Shown in pieces: positions 1,237 through 20,272 of a stretch of DNA of 53,173 bases (within the stretch, counting starts at the first letter, position 1; the number at the start of each line of letters is the position of its first letter). The translations under genes and the position numbers were made by a program. The notes under the pieces are model-generated. The model searched no databases. It saw nothing but the letters and a program-made list of their open reading frames with translations, and had not been told where the DNA came from. Source of the stretch: a virus (taxonomy: Duplodnaviria; Caudoviricetes); the IMG/VR virus record IMGVR_UViG_3300015024_000005, positions 1 through 53,173 of that record; one strand, written 5' to 3'.

Positions 1237-2473
1237 CTAAATCCTCTTCAGTTTCAAATCTAGGTCTTTTTAACAGAGTTTTATTATCTCTCATTTGAAT
1301 GTATCGCCCATAAGCCTCGGATTTAGGCTGTGTAAACGCTAACCCTTTACACCAATAATCATTACGTAGTAATACTTTGCACAATCGTCTCCAAGAAGGA
1401 GCTATTCTTTTGGCCTCTAAAACAGAAGGAACCTCGTCTGGAATCCCATCCGCGTATCCTCTACATTTCCACCATTTAATAAAAACTTTAAATTTCTTTA
1501 TATAATGCTCTTGGGTTGATTTAGGTAAAGAACTGAGTAGTAAGTTACAAAAGGACTTCCATGTATGGTTAGGGGGTTTAGATATCTTAGAGTAACCAGT
1601 CATATTACCAGACTCTTGTATATATAAAGCTCCTGAATTTACTCCATTCACTCTATTTACTACCTTATACCACGTTGCTGGCTCTAAAATATGATATAAC
1701 CATAGTCCTCTACGTTGATCGTCTCCATAGGGTTGACATATCCTCATCTGGGCTGGAGAAAGTCCTGCTTTGTGCATCTGCTCATATATAATATTGTAAG
1801 GCAGTGTAGGATTAAGATAGTGATAGTGCCACAAATCAGCTACAGACCAATCGTAAATTGGATAGATATTATAAACATTTTCAGTAACTTTAGTAGTGTA
1901 ATTTCTATCTTTAAACTTAATTTTTGATTTTAAAGCTATAGTTCTAAAACGATTCAAACTTTCATCGGTTCTTATACCTACGAAACAAGCGCAAGTTTTT
2001 CCTTCTGCATACCATTCTCCAAACTCAGGTACAAATTCTTCAAATTCAAATCCTCTTTGGAAAAAGTTAAAATACTTCTCATCTGTAATTGCATACGCAG
2101 GGGGCTGTCTAACCCAAGAGTGTTTGGCATCAGGGTCCCAGGCTAACCATTTGGGTTGATAATTAGATACTGCGTTCCTTAATGCTAGCGGTAATGATAC
2201 CCAGAATAAATCAATGTTATCTTTATATAACTCAACGCATTTTTCTGCATGATCAATAGTGAGTTTATACTGAGCTTCTAAATCAACCAATAAAATCCCT
2301 ATCTTCCTATTTCTTTTTATTGCTTCTTTCATAACTAAATGCAACATCAAAGTGCTGTCTTTACCTGCGCTAAAGCTTAGGTATATCTTTTCAAAATTAT
2401 CGAATATAAACTCTATTCGTTGTTGACTAGCCTGCATTACATTTATCTCTTGATATTTTTTAAGTATTGACAT
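1229..2473 (-). CDS. ibrA: IbrA/YbdN-like PAPS-reductase-fold (PP-loop) protein with DUF3440
   Basis: SFSAGKDS PP-loop, GIRTDESLNR, YPIYDW, MRICQPYGDDQRRGL, PSWRRLCKVLLRNDYWCKGL. Confidence 0.9.
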   Translation of the reverse strand: MSILKKYQEINVMQASQQRIEFIFDNFEKIYLSFSAGKDSTLMLHLVMKEAIKRNRKIGILLVDLEAQYKLTIDHAEKCVELYKDNIDLFWVSLPLALRNAVSNYQPKWLAWDPDAKHSWVRQPPAYAITDEKYFNFFQRGFEFEEFVPEFGEWYAEGKTCACFVGIRTDESLNRFRTIALKSKIKFKDRNYTTKVTENVYNIYPIYDWSVADLWHYHYLNPTLPYNIIYEQMHKAGLSPAQMRICQPYGDDQRRGLWLYHILEPATWYKVVNRVNGVNSGALYIQESGNMTGYSKISKPPNHTWKSFCNLLLSSLPKSTQEHYIKKFKVFIKWWKCRGYADGIPDEVPSVLEAKRIAPSWRRLCKVLLRNDYWCKGLAFTQPKSEAYGRYIQMRDNKTLLKRPRFETEEDLDG

Positions 2474-2843
2474 TATTACTCCTTGTTCCTAACCATAAGT
2501 CTAAATAAGTTTGAGCCAACTTATTTGCTATAAGTTGTTCTTCTTGTGTCAAAGTGTTGTAAGCACCCATACTTACTGAAGCAGGTACCCCTAAAACTAA
2601 AGCACAAGCTGCTTGACCTAGATATGCAATTCTATTCATACCCACGTTAGTCAAATTATGTTCACAGGAATTAGGCCATTTAGTTATTATGTTATATAAA
2701 GCTGCCTCAAACTTATTACTATCCTTAAGTAAATCTGCACATAGTTGAACTGTATTTTGAGTTGGGTAACTTGACACCCCTCCATAAAAGTTATGTCTAT
2801 AATCTTCCCACTTATCAAAAGAATGGAATACTCTATTAATCAT
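2460..2843 (-). CDS. Hypothetical protein between ibrB and ibrA
   Basis: 127 aa overlapping both neighbours; CEHNLTNxxMNRIAYLGQAAC motif. Confidence 0.8.
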   Translation of the reverse strand: MINRVFHSFDKWEDYRHNFYGGVSSYPTQNTVQLCADLLKDSNKFEAALYNIITKWPNSCEHNLTNVGMNRIAYLGQAACALVLGVPASVSMGAYNTLTQEEQLIANKLAQTYLDLWLGTRSNNVNT

Positions 2844-3514
2844 ATAGAATCCTCATCTAATTCTACCGTGGTAGAATCATTATCATTATTTTCAATATCC
2901 CAAGCTTTACTAAAATCCGTCGTACTGAACATTTCTACTAACCCACTAACTTGACACAGTCGTAGGACCTCATCTGAATCCATTCCTAGATGTTTAGCAA
3001 TCCATTCTTCACTTCTATTTCTTTTCTTAAGGTCTACTACTATATCAGACATTGAGTCTACTCCATGCTTACCTCTTGCTCGATTATGTCTAATAGTCGA
3101 TGCCATGCGATCTGATAAATCTGATCTATCTCCGTTAATAACAACCAAAGGTAAATACCCTTTAATTCTTTTTTGTATCTCTTTTGATTCCTTACCTACT
3201 CGATGCCTATGAAAACCATCAATAACTTCATACTTACCTTCTCGTTCCCAAGATACGATAGGCTGTGTATACCCATCTGACTGAATAGAAAGTTCAAGAA
3301 GTTTCATTTCTGGAGGAGCTACCGTATTTGGATTGTAATCGTTAGCCAACACCTCTGTATTTAGTACCCATTGAACGCAGTCTACTGGCTCAGTATTGAA
3401 AGGCGAATACTTGGCTAATTCTAGGCGAATTTTATTAATTGTATCCACTTTTTGCTTTACAGGTAAATCCTCAATACCTCTAAATATCTCTGAACATTTT
3501 TCTATTATAGACAT
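2840..3514 (-). CDS. ibrB: IbrB/YbdM-like ParB/Srx-fold protein with C-terminal HTH
   Basis: ANDYNPN, PPEMKLLELSIQSDGYTQPIV, VIDGFHR, ASTIRHNRARGKH, IAKHLGMDSDEVLRL. Confidence 0.9.
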   Translation of the reverse strand: MSIIEKCSEIFRGIEDLPVKQKVDTINKIRLELAKYSPFNTEPVDCVQWVLNTEVLANDYNPNTVAPPEMKLLELSIQSDGYTQPIVSWEREGKYEVIDGFHRHRVGKESKEIQKRIKGYLPLVVINGDRSDLSDRMASTIRHNRARGKHGVDSMSDIVVDLKKRNRSEEWIAKHLGMDSDEVLRLCQVSGLVEMFSTTDFSKAWDIENNDNDSTTVELDEDSI

Positions 3515-3537
3515 AAAACAACCTTTCTTTTTGTATA

Positions 3538-3566
3538 AGTATACAATACTTTTATAGAATAGGCAA
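3538..3566 (-). promoter_or_regulatory. Sigma70-type promoter of the ibr cassette
   Basis: TTGCCT-17 nt-TATACT just upstream of the ibrB RBS. Confidence 0.65.
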
Positions 3567-3574
3567 TAAATAAT

Positions 3575-3602
3575 AAAAAACCCTCTTTTTTAAGGAGGGT
3601 TA
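3575..3602 (-). terminator. Rho-independent terminator after the capsid gene
   Basis: AACCCTC-loop-GAGGGTT followed by a T-run. Confidence 0.8.
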
Positions 3603-3642
3603 AAATCTTACGATTTTTATAATAGTTAGTTATACTACACGA

Positions 3643-4941
3643 TTACGCGGATAACTGAACCACGCAATTCCAACCTGGTGCACTACAAATCAAGTTACCA
3701 TAGTAACCGATACGAATCTCTAAAGCATCCGCATTACCGACGCGAAGTCCTTCTAAACCTTCCATACCGTATGTAAGGATATGAGGTACTTTACCTAAAG
3801 AGCGTAGTTTAAACGTGCTCATAGTAAGTAAGTAAGCTGTTTGTGGAGGACATGAACGGTCAGCTAAGACAGTTACACGTCCATAAGCAGATTGAAATGT
3901 AATACATTAAAAAGATACTTCAACTTCATCATGGTTAACTTGTACATATTGTACTTTAGCGCCTAAAGCATTTACTAAAGCAGCATACGATGCGAAGTCC
4001 ATAACGCAAAGATCTGGTTTTCCACCTTCACGATTTAAGAATGCTAATGCATTCGTAATACCTTCTTCGATAGTGAACGCTTGAGCGTTGTATCGTAGTC
4101 CAGCAAGACGTGTAGGGTCAGCAGAGCGGTTAACTCCCCAGAAGTTATCATTAGCAGCAGGTGTAGTTACTGGTAACCAAGCAGCTAAGCCTGATAATGC
4201 CAAGAAAGATCCTGTGTTAGTAGCTCCTGTTAAAGGGATATCACCTGATACTGATAAGTATGACAAACCTGTACCGATAGCCCAGTTAGCAGATAATGGA
4301 CCTGCTGAAGCTGTACCAGTGATGATACCGTTTGCGCGGTCAACACCTGTAACGATAATTGAATCTGAAGAAGGTGCTCCACCGTCTGTAGCAGAAGCTA
4401 CTAACAGTTGTCCAACTTCGATTGATACGATTTGTTGTGAATTTGTAATAGTGATTGATACTCCACCTGGAGCGGTACCTGATTGAGAAGATACTGCTGA
4501 TCCAATAGCACGAGTAGCTGTACCTGATCCAAACAATTCAAATGCGATATTGTTTGTTAAGTTACGGAAACCACCATCCATTTGTAATTTAGCTGCGTCT
4601 ACGAACGCACCAGCTGAAGTCTTAGTTTGTTCCATTAACAAATTAGTAATAGTTACTAATTGGTAATCTTGGATTACATAGACAAAGTAACTAACTAAAG
4701 CTACTGCTGTTTGTTGTTGTTGAGCATTTTGGAATGTATGTGAACGACCTTGTGGTGCTCCATATTCTAATGGTACTGGAATGTATTTTCCTGCGAAACC
4801 ATCTGGACTCTCGTCTTTAGGTACTAATGCCAAGAATGGATTTTCCTTGTAAACTAGATCCTTCATGTACTCTTTATCATCTTTGTATAGCTCTTTTAAT
4901 GAAGCTATCTGGTTCGAACTGTTAGCAAATTGTGCTGCCAT
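3643..4941 (-). CDS. Major capsid protein (~432 aa; in-frame TAA at 3907-3909)
   Basis: Follows portal and scaffold and precedes a terminator; the same frame continues 87 codons past the TAA (CITFQSAYGRVTVLADRSCP...EIRIGYYGNLICSAPGWNCVVQLSA), like an HK97-fold C-terminus. Confidence 0.85.
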
Positions 4942-5067
4942 GTTATATTCCTATGTTATTTTACATACTTAGCTAAATGTTACCCAATGTAATATCTATC
5001 TTTTTATGTATATCTAAGTGACCTGCTTACTGCGCTTTTACACGACTCACCGAGGTGTTAGATGTTA

Positions 5068-6093
5068 TTAGTACTTCTCACCTTTAAACGCTAATATAGC
5101 TCTTTCCTTAGCTGATAACTGTCTATTGGAAGATGCTGCATTCGTTAAAGTCTTCATTGTTTGTTGTGGCTGCTGTGTTTGAGTAGCTCCTGGTGTCTTC
5201 TGGGAGTTGGTTGCAGGTCGCGTTGCACTCGCTTGCTGTATCCGGTTCTTAATCTTATTGATGTTAGCTACCTTGGTATACTCATCTGCTAGGTAGTCTT
5301 CTACTTGTTGCGCTGCTTCTTCAACTGTTAATAGATATCCGTCTTTTTCGTATGTTTGAGTGATTAGCTCAACTACATCTCTAGTAGCTCGAGTAGCTTT
5401 AATAGTTTCAAAATTAGGGTCATTCTTTACTAGGGCTTTTACATCTAGTTCAATCTGTTTAACTGCTGCTTGATACTGAGCGGTTTGCTGCTCTTCATAG
5501 CTTTTTTGCGTTGTCTTATTAGATTCTTCTAATGCTGCAATCTTAGCTTCCAGCTTTTGAATGGTAGATTGTACTCGAGGGTCTGTAGGTTGTTGATTAA
5601 TGATTTGCTGAGTAAGCTCTTCATAACTAACACCTGCTTCTGCAAGGGCTGTTAAAGCGTCTTGTTTCAGCATATCTCTAGAAATATACTTAGACATATC
5701 TGTTTGAGGTGTCTGTAAACTAGCCTCTTTAGCTTTAAAAGCCTCTTCACGAGTCTTAAATTGCTGTTCTTGCTGCTGTGCTCGTGCTCTTAAAGCCTTT
5801 TCTTGTCTGGCTAACTGAGCAAATTGACGGCTTAACGCTGGGTCTTCAGCTTTTTCAGGTGGAGCTTCTTGTGTATCTACCTGATCTTGCTCGTCATTAG
5901 AGGCTATCTGTTCATTTCTAGCTCTAATCGCACCCATTTCTTCTGGCTGTACCTGGTTCTGGTTTTGTACTGGTGATTGCTCAGGGGTTTGTTGGCCACC
6001 CATAAACGCTTGTACTGCTCGAGCTTTGGCGTCTACTTGAGGTGCTACTGGTGTTGCTGGAGCTGTTGGCGCTCCCATTGGCTTGATATTCAT
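5068..6093 (-). CDS. Capsid scaffolding protein
   Basis: Between portal and capsid; Q/E/A-rich coiled coil with disordered ends and a short C-terminal helix (LSAKERAILAF). Confidence 0.7.
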   Translation of the reverse strand: MNIKPMGAPTAPATPVAPQVDAKARAVQAFMGGQQTPEQSPVQNQNQVQPEEMGAIRARNEQIASNDEQDQVDTQEAPPEKAEDPALSRQFAQLARQEKALRARAQQQEQQFKTREEAFKAKEASLQTPQTDMSKYISRDMLKQDALTALAEAGVSYEELTQQIINQQPTDPRVQSTIQKLEAKIAALEESNKTTQKSYEEQQTAQYQAAVKQIELDVKALVKNDPNFETIKATRATRDVVELITQTYEKDGYLLTVEEAAQQVEDYLADEYTKVANINKIKNRIQQASATRPATNSQKTPGATQTQQPQQTMKTLTNAASSNRQLSAKERAILAFKGEKY

Positions 6094-6111: not shown

Positions 6112-8022
6112 TTATTGTTGTGGGTTACCGTTTGGAATTAAAGGTGATTGTTGTTGTGGTTGTGGTGCAGCTTGTGGTGTTGGAGAAGGACCGCCTTGTG
6201 GTGGGGTCATGCCTGGCTGTGGTGCCATAGCTGCTTGTTTTAAGGTTTGAATTTGATTAAAGAAATCTCTTAGTTGGGAAGCTTTTTCTTCTTCTAGTTT
6301 AGCTTGAGAGTATAGGTTAATATACTGCACCGTAAGCTTAGTAGCTAAGTCTAGATCCATGAATGGATCGGGAGGTGTATATTTACCATCGTCGATGATA
6401 TCGTCTAATAGCTGGAATATGCGCTCTTCACCTGCATTAGCTAGCTTTTCAACTTGATCTAAGTCAGGGTAATCTAATAGTCTACGGCCTTCTTGTAGTG
6501 TAATCATCCCTGACTGCACCATCTCTGTAATCTTAGATAGGCGTCCTGCTGGATCTTTAGGTAGTGATGATTGAGTAAAACATTGGATAACAAATGCATC
6601 GTTAACTAGGTCTGCTTTAGATAGATCTATTTCTTTAGTACCATTTTTGTTAGGAAATACGGTTGAGTATTTACCATCCCGATCGACGATGTCTTTGGCA
6701 AGACCAACAATTTGGTATGTAATGTCCACAAACATATTATCATAACGACGGCTAAGACTAGCAAAGCGGTCCGTACTGATGTCGTCATACGTCCTAATCG
6801 CTTCGCCCGAATCCAAGCCTTGTGGCTTCTGACTAGACGCTTGCAATGCAGACACACCACATTGTTGATATCCGTATTGGATAAGTTTATCTCGTTCTGC
6901 ATACAATTCAGGTGCGTTACATGGTGCGACTTCATAGATTGGCTTTATACCTCTGTATTTAACAATAACTCCAATGTCATTGTTATGATGAGCTGAAGTA
7001 ACTTTAGATCCTTCTTCTTGAAATACTCTAGGTACTCCAATTAGTTTAATAGCTTTAGAAATAGTAAATAGTATGCTGTTTAGTTCTATCTGGGTGCCCA
7101 TTAGTTGTTCAGCTAGTCCTTGTGACCAGAAACCTAATAGACGTGGTGAGTAATGTAGAAATGTAAATGGGAATCGGTCCTTAGTGTAATCTTCGTCTAA
7201 TAATGATCCAGCAGAGCAAACAATCATGTGACGACCGTCTTTAGCGTTCTTACCTGATCTTAAGTGCCAGCCTTCTACTACCATTACTAAGTCAGATACG
7301 GTCTTAGATGCATCTGCTGAGTTGTCTGGGTATGCTTTAGCTGCAGCTTCTAGCTTTTGTCTAAGCTTAGGAAAACTAGCTATTAATACATCTCTATCTA
7401 CAAGCTTCATACGGTATATCTGTCTAGGCTCTCCGTACATAGCTTCATTTGGATCTACTAATAGCTCTGTTAAAAGCACTCGCTCTAAGCCGACTCTGTT
7501 ATCAGGGGTCTCGTAGGTATGTAACACTCCTGTCCCTGTTACTAAAGAATCTCTTAGGCAAGTTTGAGCAAGATCATAGGTTTTGGTAGCATAGAACTCA
7601 CCTTGTACGAAGTTATTAAGCTTCTTAGCTAGGTTACGTTCTTTATAGTTACCCATCTCCGTTAAGAACACTGGTTGAGGTCTTGACTGAGATATTCTTG
7701 ACACTAGTGTATCTGTAGCAGATTGCACTAGGTTGAATGTAGGACGGTCTTGAGGTAGACCTGAAGTTTGATCAATCTTTGACATATTACTACCAGCAAA
7801 CGAGTATAGACTCTGATTGCCGTATAGTTTAGCGTAGATTGCTGTTTGTCTGTATCTGTAGGCTTGAGACTCTTTAAGGTAGGCAGCAGTTGATAACATC
7901 TGCATTGCAGCTTTATCGTCGTCCTTCTCAGGCCACCACTGCTGCAGAGTCATAGACTCATTAACAGCTTTAGTCTTCATTGTGATTTTAGACTTAGGTC
8001 CTTGTGATGCTGTGACTTTCAT
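6112..8022 (-). CDS. Portal protein (P22-like)
   Basis: 636 aa downstream of terminase; FNLVQSATDTLVSRI...P, DSLVTGTG, VVEGW, DSGEAIR, P/Q-rich tail. Confidence 0.85.
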   Translation of the reverse strand: MKVTASQGPKSKITMKTKAVNESMTLQQWWPEKDDDKAAMQMLSTAAYLKESQAYRYRQTAIYAKLYGNQSLYSFAGSNMSKIDQTSGLPQDRPTFNLVQSATDTLVSRISQSRPQPVFLTEMGNYKERNLAKKLNNFVQGEFYATKTYDLAQTCLRDSLVTGTGVLHTYETPDNRVGLERVLLTELLVDPNEAMYGEPRQIYRMKLVDRDVLIASFPKLRQKLEAAAKAYPDNSADASKTVSDLVMVVEGWHLRSGKNAKDGRHMIVCSAGSLLDEDYTKDRFPFTFLHYSPRLLGFWSQGLAEQLMGTQIELNSILFTISKAIKLIGVPRVFQEEGSKVTSAHHNNDIGVIVKYRGIKPIYEVAPCNAPELYAERDKLIQYGYQQCGVSALQASSQKPQGLDSGEAIRTYDDISTDRFASLSRRYDNMFVDITYQIVGLAKDIVDRDGKYSTVFPNKNGTKEIDLSKADLVNDAFVIQCFTQSSLPKDPAGRLSKITEMVQSGMITLQEGRRLLDYPDLDQVEKLANAGEERIFQLLDDIIDDGKYTPPDPFMDLDLATKLTVQYINLYSQAKLEEEKASQLRDFFNQIQTLKQAAMAPQPGMTPPQGGPSPTPQAAPQPQQQSPLIPNGNPQQ

Positions 8023-10959: not shown

Positions 10960-11209
10960 TCTTAGCGCCTTCTGCTACCATTTTCTCCATTAGCTCTTTA
11001 GCATTCTTTTGAACTAATAACATATATTCTTTAACTTCTTCTACTGTTTGAAAATACTTATAACTAGATGATTCTGGGTTAGCCTCAACTTCACCTCTGG
11101 TCTTCTTAACGCCTTTTTGTACTAAATTCTTACGGTACCAATTAGTCTTACCAAAGATTGCTTTTGATAGTTCTTCTAGTTCTTTACGCTCTTCTCGATT
11201 AATATACAT
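10943..11209 (-). CDS. Hypothetical protein
   Basis: 88-aa ORF coupled to both neighbours. Confidence 0.7.
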   Translation of the reverse strand: MYINREERKELEELSKAIFGKTNWYRKNLVQKGVKKTRGEVEANPESSSYKYFQTVEEVKEYMLLVQKNAKELMEKMVAEGAKNELSK

Positions 11210-11523
11210 TATTCATCCTGGGTTAGTGTTTTACGAGCTTCTAGCATCTCATTGATCTGCTCGTCTGTAAGTCCTTTTAACGACTCACCTTCTCGGTCTT
11301 TTAACTCAAATAATAGCTTTAAATTGTCTCTTAAATCTCTAGCACTAGGGGCATCTAGCTTGCCTTTAGCTGATAGTATTAACAAGTTCTTAACTTCACG
11401 ATATAAGACTGATAAGCTATCGTCTATTAGTCTCTGTATTGATATCTCAGAAATTAAAGGAGCCTCAATTTGAGGCCCTTTTAAACTTGATAAGTCTGTA
11501 GTTAATTTACTATAGCGTTTCAT
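11209..11523 (-). CDS. Hypothetical protein, candidate terminase small subunit
   Basis: Helical, two genes upstream of terL; C-terminal LTDEQINEML resembles TerS tails. Confidence 0.45.
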   Translation of the reverse strand: MKRYSKLTTDLSSLKGPQIEAPLISEISIQRLIDDSLSVLYREVKNLLILSAKGKLDAPSARDLRDNLKLLFELKDREGESLKGLTDEQINEMLEARKTLTQDE

Positions 11524-12030: not shown

Positions 12031-12381
12031 TTATAATTTGAACGGGTTAAATATACACCCATTAAATTTAGTTATTAATTTCTTACCTAATTCAGTTAAG
12101 TGGCTAACTGCGCTAGGGTATTGCGGTAATAGTGACCTTGCTATACCTTTTAGTCTCCAATTTGCTTTGACGTAAACAAAATGAATGGTCTGATAGTCGT
12201 TACTTAAAATGCTATATCCGATAATAACGTCTTCTTCGTCCTTTAAGCAAGCTACTTTTATGGTAGCTCGTGTCACTAATGCTTCAGCTACTAACTTATA
12301 ATTGTCCATAAAAATCTGTTTAGGTATTAAACTAAACCATGAATCACCATAGTATAGCCCTCTAAGAAAAGTAGCTAACAC
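12031..12381 (-). CDS. GNAT-family acetyltransferase (true start probably further upstream, near 12438)
   Basis: IIGYSI, IHFVYVKANWRLKGIARSLL acetyl-CoA motif A; frame is open upstream (KFIGLYTVRDFKVEDTNFV). Confidence 0.75.
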   Translation of the reverse strand: MLATFLRGLYYGDSWFSLIPKQIFMDNYKLVAEALVTRATIKVACLKDEEDVIIGYSILSNDYQTIHFVYVKANWRLKGIARSLLPQYPSAVSHLTELGKKLITKFNGCIFNPFKL

Positions 12382-18079: not shown

Positions 18080-18405
18080 TATTTATTCCCTTCTCCGTTA
18101 TATCTATCATCTTTTAAAGTACCTAATTCTTTTTGTCTTAATATCATAGAAATACAAGCTTTTACAGCCCCTAAGTGATGTTGCCCGTCGATAAGGTCGT
18201 GTTCCTCACCTTGAAACCAAGCTAATAAATGTCTTTGTGCTGCTGCTACTAGCTGGCTAGCTTTATGCCCTTTACAATAATTGTATCTACCATATTTCTT
18301 CTCGCCTACCATAAATGCCCTAGCTTCTTCTAATTGAGCTATTAATGGTATTAACGATAAATCAGCTTTTTCTTGATCATTCTTAGATGCTTTACCATCT
18401 GACAT
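18079..18405 (-). CDS. DUF5664 / dATP-dGTP diphosphohydrolase N-terminal-like protein
   Basis: KNDQEKADLSLIP, GEKKYGRYNYCKG, AAQRHL, GEEHD...HHLGAV. Confidence 0.8.
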   Translation of the reverse strand: MSDGKASKNDQEKADLSLIPLIAQLEEARAFMVGEKKYGRYNYCKGHKASQLVAAAQRHLLAWFQGEEHDLIDGQHHLGAVKACISMILRQKELGTLKDDRYNGEGNK

Positions 18406-18782
18406 TATTTATTATCTCCCCATTGTTTGTTAACTTTATCAGAATAAATAGAACGAGTCAACTTATTAGAGTTACCTCTGTTATAAGCTACAATACCCTT
18501 ATTTATATCATTATACCTTAAAATCTGCTTTTGTAAATACTTACCTGCATAATAAATATTTATTTTTGGATTCATTAATTGTTCTACCGTACCTTTAAAA
18601 CCTAAATATTTAGCTGTCTCTAGCTTAACCTGGCATACACCGTAAGAATGAGAACTGCCATCGTCTATATGCACTACAGAAGCTATATGTCTTGTTTCTA
18701 CAAAACATAGTGATGATAGTAATCCATTTGGTAAGTTAAATTGTATGCTAGTTGTTATAAATAAGGCAGCTAGTATTGTCAT
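18405..18782 (-). CDS. SLT-type lytic transglycosylase
   Basis: Catalytic Glu in FVET, SYGVCQVK, LMNPKINIYYAGKYL, AYNRG. Confidence 0.85.
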   Translation of the reverse strand: MTILAALFITTSIQFNLPNGLLSSLCFVETRHIASVVHIDDGSSHSYGVCQVKLETAKYLGFKGTVEQLMNPKINIYYAGKYLQKQILRYNDINKGIVAYNRGNSNKLTRSIYSDKVNKQWGDNK

Positions 18783-18819: not shown

Positions 18820-18829
18820 CGATTAAAGC

Positions 18830-19135
18830 TTATTTTAATGGTACTGGTAAATACGTTCCACAAAAACCGTTTCCTTTCAATACGCTTGCTAAAAAAGGAT
18901 TGGCTTGAAATACTAAATCTCTAAATAGCTCAAAACTATATAATGCTTTTAATAAAATATCTAATGGTATTGAACCCCAATGTCTAATTTTCTGCTCATA
19001 TTGAGACACCCATCTGTTTTTGTGTTTTATGTAAAAAGAAATAGGAGCCTTACTGCCGGATCTGCCAGATTTATATATTTCTACCCTATTCCCTACTCCT
19101 GCTTGATTTATTACACAACTACCTATTAAAATCAC
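18830..19135 (-). CDS. Small protein ending in a copy of the major capsid N-terminal segment
   Basis: GTGA coupling to the upstream gene; C-terminus DLVFQANPFLASVLKGNGFCGTYLPVPL aligns with capsid DLVYKENPFLALVPKDESPDGFAGKYIPVPL. Confidence 0.75.
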   Translation of the reverse strand: MILIGSCVINQAGVGNRVEIYKSGRSGSKAPISFYIKHKNRWVSQYEQKIRHWGSIPLDILLKALYSFELFRDLVFQANPFLASVLKGNGFCGTYLPVPLK

Positions 19136-19842
19136 AGCTTACCCGTCCATCGACCTTTTGAATTTAAAGTCATAGGTATTAAAACGGGTTTGGAGTCAAT
19201 TATAATAGATGTTCCAATAATAGGACGGTTCAAATTGAGCTTATCATAAGCAAATGCTAGTGATTTTCTATCTATTAGACATCCTGATTGTAAAGACCAT
19301 AGTAAAGCATTTGGGTTACCAATATAGTCAATTCTAAAATCGGTATGAAAGTGAAATTGTACTACATTAGTACCACGCTGCGCTGCTAGCTTAATGCCTT
19401 GCTTACTCATACCATGGCAAAAGTATACTGGCTGGCCATTAGGTAGTGTTAGCTGTAGATCGTTAACCCACTGCCATTTAGTAGATACACCGTAGATTTG
19501 ATGCTGAGTAGCTAGGTACTTCATAGGAATGCCATTATGCTTCATCTTGCGAAGGGCTAAACTACCATGATTTGAATCTAAGATAATCATATTAGGAAAC
19601 ATCTTTTCGAGACGTTTAAGCACTGTGGTAGCTTTTACTAGCTCGTCCCCTGCTGATGGTAAGTCACTGTCAGAGTCGTGAAAACTAAGGCAGTGCGCGT
19701 CAACCTCGTCGCCTCCATTAATGATTAAAGTTGGCTTATATTTCTTCTTAATAGCGGCTAAGAATTTAAACATATCTGGGTGTTGGTATGGAGCATGTTG
19801 GTCACTAATGCAAAGTATTCGTCTAGTATCTAATTTCTTCAT
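19132..19842 (-). CDS. Calcineurin-like metallophosphoesterase
   Basis: ISDQH, GGDEVD, DSNH, FCHG, FHFH. Confidence 0.85.
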   Translation of the reverse strand: MKKLDTRRILCISDQHAPYQHPDMFKFLAAIKKKYKPTLIINGGDEVDAHCLSFHDSDSDLPSAGDELVKATTVLKRLEKMFPNMIILDSNHGSLALRKMKHNGIPMKYLATQHQIYGVSTKWQWVNDLQLTLPNGQPVYFCHGMSKQGIKLAAQRGTNVVQFHFHTDFRIDYIGNPNALLWSLQSGCLIDRKSLAFAYDKLNLNRPIIGTSIIIDSKPVLIPMTLNSKGRWTGKL

Positions 19843-19876: not shown

Positions 19877-20272
19877 TTACTTTTTTGCCTTTTTAAGTCT
19901 ACGTCTCTCTTTATTTTCTTCCTTAGTTTTAGACTCATGGCAAGGCTTACACAAAGCCTCTAGGTTACGCTCGTCGCACCATATACCATCTATTACTTGA
20001 TCCCAGGACATCTCTTCTAAAGAGCTATTAACAGGTATTAAAGGCTCTTTGTGATCTATCTGTAATAAATATGCTGGCTCTAATTTTTGACAATTAGCGC
20101 ACTTACCCCATCTAGTAACGCGCTTTCTGCTAGGATCGCTATAGTCTTTAATTACAGCGGCGTCTAGTGCTTGCCTTCTTAGCTCAGACCTGGAAAATAC
20201 TCTTCTTAGAGCACCTTTTATTAAATTGCGTTCTTTTGGATTTTTAGGATTCTTCAATGGTAGATTCTCCAT
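19877..20272 (-). CDS. HNH endonuclease
   Basis: CANC, QIDHKEP, NLEALCKPCHESKT. Confidence 0.85.
   Translation of the reverse strand: MENLPLKNPKNPKERNLIKGALRRVFSRSELRRQALDAAVIKDYSDPSRKRVTRWGKCANCQKLEPAYLLQIDHKEPLIPVNSSLEEMSWDQVIDGIWCDERNLEALCKPCHESKTKEENKERRRLKKAKK

Follow-up and report, generated by a model that had tools for sequence, protein, structure and literature searches.

A small accessory phage protein that ends in a diverged copy of the major capsid N-arm

The window analysed here, a viral record of 53,173 bases that looks complete (37.5% G+C), encodes a small protein, P0001, whose C-terminal end resembles the N-terminal arm (N-arm) of the major capsid protein of the same record. 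The P0001 gene lies among DNA-metabolism genes and not among head genes. What, then, is a piece of the coat protein doing at the end of a small protein encoded at this place?

The P0001 tail and the capsid N-arm

The P0001 gene (18830..19135, minus strand) is 101 codons long and starts with GTG. Residues 1-60 (18956..19135, minus strand) are predicted to form a small beta-sheet domain with the motif GR.G.K.P, and residues 62-101 (18833..18952, minus strand) make up a C-terminal tail, which is paralogous to residues 15-59 of the capsid N-arm and has diverged from them; the P0001 stop codon coincides with the end of the N-arm. An earlier, sequence-only reading of this DNA had matched the last ~40 amino acids of the ORF to capsid residues 15-59 with about half of the positions identical. 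A BLASTP comparison of the pair bore this out, with 23/45 identities, 29/45 positives, 5 gap positions and a significant score (42.4 bits, E 3e-10). In a six-frame search of the 53,173 bases, the sole second match of the capsid ORF was found at 18830-18952 on the minus strand (E 5.8e-6).

Over the 40 aligned codons, tail and N-arm share 73/120 nucleotides (61%). Identity is 70% at codon position 1, 70% at position 2 and only 42.5% at position 3, and the 23 identical residues use the same codon in 14 cases and a synonymous codon in 9. The NG86 estimate of dN was 0.37; dS was saturated and could not be computed. Taken together, the saturated dS and the codon-position pattern show that the similarity is an old one, held at the protein level. 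These comparisons indicate that the tail is under purifying selection, and they agree with the earlier proposal of protein-level selection as opposed to a fresh duplication.

The GTG of P0001 (19135-19133) overlaps the TGA of the upstream metallophosphoesterase gene (19134-19132) as GTGA, which is consistent with translational coupling of P0001 to that gene. Local repeats and promoter or terminator signals around P0001 did not exceed those of shuffled sequences, and none of the public runs found to hold the P0001 locus was an RNA run. P0001 had no family match in Pfam, PHROGs or NCBIfam (for NCBIfam, none at E<=1). As a single query in a word-indexed protein search it matched only itself, its relatives emerging only with profiles, and among GenBank phages nothing matched the locus DNA, P0001, P0168 or the capsid in its short or full-length form. 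P0001 does not belong to NCBIfam NF033394, the family of the capsid (see below), only the N-arm part being present; nor is it a scaffolding protein, since it consists of a 101-amino-acid beta domain plus tail encoded at another locus.

In the AlphaFold2 model, computed from a 27-sequence alignment, residues 1-60 reached a pLDDT of 85-96 and are predicted to fold as a four-stranded beta domain (strands 2-11, 14-24, 32-38 and 41-43, helix 45-50). The tail is partly helical in the model and has a lower pLDDT (58-76), as expected of a segment that would fold on a partner. Compared with the PDB, the P0001 model had no Foldseek match at E<=0.001; a wide fold comparison with VIA-align gave a best Z of 3.9, and the ESM Atlas returned no usable match.

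The major capsid gene (3646..4941, minus strand) has 432 codons and is interrupted in the window by an in-frame TAA at 3907-3909; its N-arm segment (residues 15-59) lies at 4765-4899. The 344-codon ORF seen in the window (3907..4941, minus strand) is the front of the 432-codon gene, which the window cuts with TAA at codon 345. Two G>T changes separate TAA TGT at this place in the window from the GAA GGT of six relatives, and a full-length relative aligns to 4941..3646 at 85.6% identity with one stop (tblastn). The TAA could be a sequencing or assembly error, the mark of a defective genome, or a codon that is read through. The assignment to the capsid family rests on the relative L003, whose capsid scores 89.2 bits against NF033394 (phage major capsid protein; curated cut-off 80). 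The full-length relative also matches phrog_9953 and, weakly, Pfam SU10_MCP.

We found about 2,900 relatives of this capsid at E<=1e-10. The N-arm is its best-conserved stretch, with many invariant columns among 37 close relatives and 73-97% identity across relatives, and L15, Y19, V30, P35, A38, K42, G51 and P57 are invariant in 93 capsids down to 32% identity. Capsid profiles compared by sequence with solved structures gave nothing beyond chance, and the structure model of the capsid is poor (mean pLDDT 55.7, residues 1-138 below 50).

A candidate partner of the N-arm is the 341-residue product of 5068..6093 (minus strand), encoded between the capsid gene and the portal gene (6112..8022, which matches phrog_156). 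This protein gave no family match; the position of its gene and its conserved C-terminus suggest that it acts as a scaffold. Its last ~30 residues are strongly conserved, with the block MKTLTN....R.LS.RERAILAF.G.LK in 35 relatives. We submitted the capsid body (residues 60-432 of L003, 92-row alignment) and the last 62 residues of this scaffold-like protein to complex prediction with P0001 as partner; the score was 0.00 against a mark of 0.32, in a prediction made without control runs, and it weighs on neither side of the binding question.

A family of small proteins with a common tail

The sequence-only reading had counted a fusion unique to this genome as a result against its idea, and had suggested looking for the segment in other small non-structural ORFs; the fusion proved not to be unique. 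A profile built from eight non-capsid N-arm copies was searched against 1.84 billion cluster representatives (50%-identity clusters) and returned 213 of them at E<=0.001. We examined 148 sequences (144 newly listed and four known). In 100 of them, small proteins of 66-131 amino acids (median 103), the module stands at the very C-terminus, and the chain ends 21-33 residues past the N of the NPF motif. A further 34, capsids or fragments of capsids, have it at the N-terminus, eight carry it elsewhere, in mid-protein, and the remaining six were missed by the regular expression. The tail thus defines a large family. The tail pattern of subfamily A (defined below), L..(L/M)Y ... (D/N)L(V/I)Y..NPFL.(L/M)(I/V)PK ... 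G.Y.P(V/I)P, is present in P0001, which ends 22 residues past the N of NPF, inside the family range.

We then grouped the N-terminal parts of the 100 small proteins by BLASTP (E<=1e-3) with the tail core removed. They fell into 21 groups, of 28, 26, 13, 11, 3, 3 and 2 members plus 14 singletons, the N-part of P0001 sitting with 25 others in the group of 26. This distribution indicates that the tail is a capsid N-arm homologue common to many unrelated N-terminal parts. P0001 aligns from end to end with 26 other cluster representatives (21-42% identity), which makes its GTG start and the whole of its ORF credible. We define subfamily A as proteins of about 100-124 amino acids with an N-terminal domain carrying GR.G.K.P and a chain that finishes shortly past the tail pattern, and P0001 is one of them. 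In the subfamily A alignment Y66 and P80 are invariant, and R25, G27, P31, N79 and L82 are kept in at least 90% of the sequences. Kinship within it can be faint: the N-parts of P0001 and P0024 taken alone gave no BLASTP match and are seen to be related only in the 27-sequence alignment. In a second large group (P0003-like), two members are 51% identical over their full length (E 2e-46).

NPF and Y.PVP are 16 residues apart in most small proteins, as in a wider set of capsids of 401-421 amino acids, versus 19 in the capsid clade of the window. This difference implies that the tail family is older or wider than that clade.

Four representatives (P0170, P0179, P0180 and P0207) have a Tat-signal-like N-terminus in front of a complete N-arm copy. 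P0170 (19.7 bits) and P0179 (17.0 bits) pass the TIGR01409 cut-off of 16.7, P0180 has a weak Pfam TAT_signal match (E 0.035), and the signal of P0207 was seen by eye only. P0001 has no TIGR01409 match and thus no Tat signal of this kind. These four proteins would fit a module that binds a partner outside the head, for instance a host chaperone or a factor involved in export or the envelope, common to the N-arm and the small proteins. This is speculative, however, and 96 of the 100 small proteins, by reading of their sequences, have no such signal; we regard a non-head partner as distinctly unlikely.

The N-arm-tailed family is unannotated in Pfam, PHROGs and NCBIfam. The sequence-only reading knew of no described case, and our full-text literature search likewise turned up no report of accessory proteins that bear a copy of the capsid N-arm.

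Location of the genes and a possible role in head assembly

In the window, the P0001 gene lies between the metallophosphoesterase gene upstream (19132..19842, minus strand; PF00149 E 3.9e-5, phrog_221 E 3.2e-52) and an SLT-type transglycosylase gene downstream (18405..18782, minus strand; PF01464 E 1.4e-11). It occupies a cassette of 309 nucleotides (18827..19135) that is present or absent among near-identical phages. The borders are two copies of the direct repeat TAAGCT on the minus strand, one upstream (19136..19141) and one downstream (18827..18832), the TAA of the latter being the P0001 stop codon. The best holder of the locus, run X1, carries the form with the gene. In contigs of two other studies (runs X2 and X3 from the first, X4 from the second), 18826 is joined to 19136, so that exactly 309 bases are skipped; the flanks of these gene-less contigs are 95-99% alike, and six letters fit either side of the join. 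Without the cassette, the phosphoesterase reading frame closes with the same two residues, K L, and a stop (AAG CTT TAA). The exact 309-nucleotide absence at a six-base microhomology amounts to a clean gain or loss of a single gene. The P0001 gene is thus a dispensable accessory cassette, and very close phages live without it. In the relatives L113 and L116 the transglycosylase gene directly follows the phosphoesterase gene, and among nine loci fetched via the phosphoesterase no motif-bearing ORF was found at the P0001 slot when the translations were read. This arrangement recalls phage morons: a single small gene between two conserved genes, present or absent in near-identical genomes, with the reading frame of the neighbour preserved. 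A capsid-arm homologue is unusual content for such a cassette. One 57-nucleotide contig of X1 (depth 8.4) joins 18880 to 19094 and skips 213 nucleotides inside P0001; it could be a minor deletion variant or an artefact of the assembly graph.

In related phages the tailed genes are found elsewhere in the genome, in most cases next to the large terminase gene. From the IMG/VR records sharing the capsid we kept 80 loci of 105 confirmed, and whole-record searches of 50 related records revealed clear extra N-arm copies in five. Directly upstream of the large terminase gene there is a 104-residue ORF in G012 and a 124-residue ORF in G013; G003 has, also upstream of it, a tandem of 75- and 82-residue ORFs, the latter being a whole N-arm copy with an insertion of ~30 residues. 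G025 has a 107-residue ORF just downstream of the terminase gene. The fifth copy is placed differently, at about residues 196-238 of a glutamine-rich protein of 300 amino acids in G027 (L179 1799-2701, minus strand), whose gene adjoins that of a 150-residue HNH endonuclease. The queries A8 and P0155 yielded no confirmed locus, and A12 led only to the known record and one 3.1-kb contig. The sequence-only reading had expected P0001 to be made before the capsid. This was drawn from gene order alone, and it is weakened by the equivalents in G003, G012, G013 and G025, which lie beside the terminase gene in the structural and packaging region.

Several minor observations were made at these loci. The small ORF that fills the position immediately upstream of the terminase gene differs in almost every genome. 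In 27 related records (L122-L148) the large terminase is of two types, 58-84% and 36-44% identical to the N-terminal half of that of the window, and a conserved gene of ~100 codons (window 11209-11523) precedes the first type only. A 105-residue ORF in L183 (727-1044, plus strand) begins, by eye, like a DNA cytosine methyltransferase and has a short N-arm-like end (..LYEPNP.LALVKK..); the next gene downstream encodes a subfamily-B tailed protein, and a metallophosphoesterase gene is nearby. Upstream of the packaging genes, the window (12031-12381, minus strand) and its relatives (e.g. L136 2500-2934) encode a conserved protein of 116-158 amino acids that contains FLRG.YYG(N/D)..F.L(I/V)PK. The member in G022 weakly matches the N-arm profile (E 6.2e-4), a resemblance that may be due to chance.

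We propose that P0001 is a two-part accessory protein in which an autonomous beta domain is joined to an ancient paralogue of the N-arm of an NF033394-type capsid. As the phages involved are uncultured, what it does has to be inferred. In our preferred reading, to which we assign a probability of roughly 40%, the tail would share the binding partner of the capsid N-arm, and a variable small domain would thereby be brought to the head as it assembles. Two features make a targeting role the most likely one in our judgement: one tail common to many folded payloads is what a shared address signal would look like, and most of the related copies lie beside a packaging gene. The tail would then be a docking module that engages the partner of the N-arm during head assembly. 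Candidates for this partner are the scaffold-like protein, through its conserved C-terminal segment, and, on neighbouring capsid subunits, the N-arm groove. In phage 80alpha, the C-terminal helix-and-hook of the scaffold touches the N-arm helix of the capsid protein (PMC5644958). With such docking the protein could become a minor or internal head component, its variable N-terminal domain being placed inside or on the procapsid, and the address tag would have been made from a copy of the coat protein's own arm.

Two known systems of addressing resemble this proposal in part. In T4, a short common peptide, the capsid targeting sequence, directs unrelated small proteins into the prohead. That signal is N-terminal and about 10 residues long, has no homology to the capsid protein and is cut off by the prohead protease, whereas the tail described here is C-terminal, ~45 residues long and homologous to the capsid N-arm. 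Encapsulins are cellular compartments in which C-terminal cargo-loading peptides on diverse proteins bind the inner face of an HK97-fold shell. The likeness lies in C-terminal tails on diverse proteins; encapsulin cargo peptides, however, are short sequences that do not copy the shell protein, while here the tail derives from the shell protein itself. If the tail is indeed a docking signal, it would be a marker, recognisable in sequence, for head-riding proteins in a large group of uncultured phages, with ~2,900 capsid relatives and at least 100 clusters of tailed small proteins. It would also reveal a new way for such signals to arise, by copying a piece of the shell protein, and might serve as a natural tag by which foreign proteins are loaded into HK97-type capsids.

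Several points speak against docking: in the window the P0001 gene lies among DNA-metabolism genes and not among head genes, the Tat-like signals of four representatives fit poorly with encapsidation in the cytoplasm, and a tail that copies the N-arm could equally compete with it. The last point leads to a reading of P0001 as a competitive inhibitor or regulator, a free copy of the N-arm that occupies the N-arm site on the scaffold or the capsid. It would delay assembly of the phage's own heads, or poison those of co-infecting relatives or satellites with nearly identical N-arms. The tail does retain the invariant residues of the N-arm, and the 73-97% identity of N-arms among relatives means that a single inhibitor would act on many competitors; the gene is moreover accessory and polymorphic, as competition genes often are. 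There is also a precedent for competition through a copied assembly motif: in the 80alpha/SaPI1 pair, the island protein CpmB competes for the capsid via the same kind of motif as the 80alpha scaffold (PMC5644958). CpmB, like the proteins studied here, is a small accessory protein with a C-terminal copy of a head-assembly motif, by which it enters the assembly pathway, as P0001 and its relatives may do. The difference is that CpmB carries a satellite's copy of the scaffold C-terminus, while here a phage copies its own capsid N-arm onto many small domains. An inhibitor would need the tail only, yet the family keeps folded and diverse N-terminal domains, and, short of a tail that has become specific by divergence, it would strike the capsid of its own phage as well. 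We hold inhibition as such to be rather unlikely, while an assembly-related role together with head targeting is the direction we prefer.

The sequence-only reading had named first, among its ideas, a decoy for a host defence; the sensor would recognise the N-terminal region of the capsid, and the small protein would soak it up or pre-empt it. Capsid-triggered defences exist: with CapRel-SJ46, and with Lit and the Gol peptide, a segment of the major capsid protein acts as the recognised signal. An accessory, polymorphic gene that conserves a capsid epitope at the protein level would suit this role. To our knowledge there is no sensor for capsids of the NF033394 type, and a literature search found no phage-encoded decoy made of a capsid fragment. 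A mimic of the trigger would be expected to set the sensor off, unless it bound without activating. Nor would a decoy need many different N-terminal domains or a tail that always ends at the N-arm boundary. The decoy thus found no direct support, leaves the same tail on many unrelated N-terminal domains unexplained, and seems to us improbable. Were the tail a competitor or a decoy after all, it would stand for a new class of assembly interference or of counter-defence.

Intervening sequences in capsid genes and the source of the tail

In many relatives the first ~60 codons of the capsid gene are interrupted by intervening sequences, some of which carry HNH ORFs. Large insertions of 600-900 nucleotides are found at about codons 35-37, 52-56 and 57-61, and they cluster at codons 52-61, the zone where the tails of the small proteins end. 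This coincidence makes a duplicated first capsid exon a plausible source of the module. HNH-type ORFs were seen in the large intervening sequences of L047 (1617-2126 and 2501-2959) and L038 (2269-2991 and 3239-3637).

A broader form of the docking proposal can be built on this origin. The first capsid exon would have been duplicated, possibly with the help of the intervening sequences and HNH endonucleases of the first 60 codons, and fused behind many small domains as a portable address tag. The tail would insert at the N-arm position in the lattice or on the scaffold, and the domains would be loaded in or on the head, a changing set of accessory proteins thus being delivered to the next cell. 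This extended scheme is possible but tentative. If correct, it would represent a modular cargo-loading system for tailed phages, analogous to the encapsulin peptides and derived from the shell.

The same insertions could suggest that P0001 is a neutral relic: part of the capsid 5' exon that was moved to an ectopic site by intron or homing-endonuclease activity and now lies in a chance ORF. Interruption of the first ~60 capsid codons in relatives, the HNH ORFs in some of these sequences and the clustering of insertions where the tail ends would all be in line with it. Against it stand the conservation of the full-length ORF in 26 representatives and the retention of residues while synonymous sites are saturated. 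The cassette, moreover, contains no ribozyme or endonuclease remnant, the P0001 ORF being the only one present. As an account of the present function, a neutral relic is largely refuted and in our view extremely unlikely; it may still explain where the module came from.

A group I intron or homing-endonuclease remnant at P0001 was considered and rejected, there being no Rfam core and no endonuclease ORF in the cassette. Rfam reported nothing at gathering score in the window or in seven loci, and nothing relevant in window 2300-5100 and nothing in L044. The sole, weak group I intron match was at L038 2070-2342 (16.4 bits, E 0.36). An HNH gene of the window (19877..20272) is kept at the same site in L116, which is without the cassette.

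Finally, short inserts of 31-60 nucleotides were observed in the 5' region of the capsid gene in 13 relatives (L029, L037, L038, L041, L044, L049, L050, L051, L056, L059, L060, L078 and L080), at nucleotides 67, 92, 101 and 137 of the gene. Their lengths are mostly not multiples of three. By eye, no matched take-off and landing codons were seen in them. Each has an in-frame TAA within its first ~10 nucleotides; this TAA falls in a hairpin loop, and the last 6-7 coding bases form the 5' arm of the hairpin, a layout that resembles the coding gap of T4 gene 60, the mitochondrial 'byp' elements or the P1 pairing of introns.
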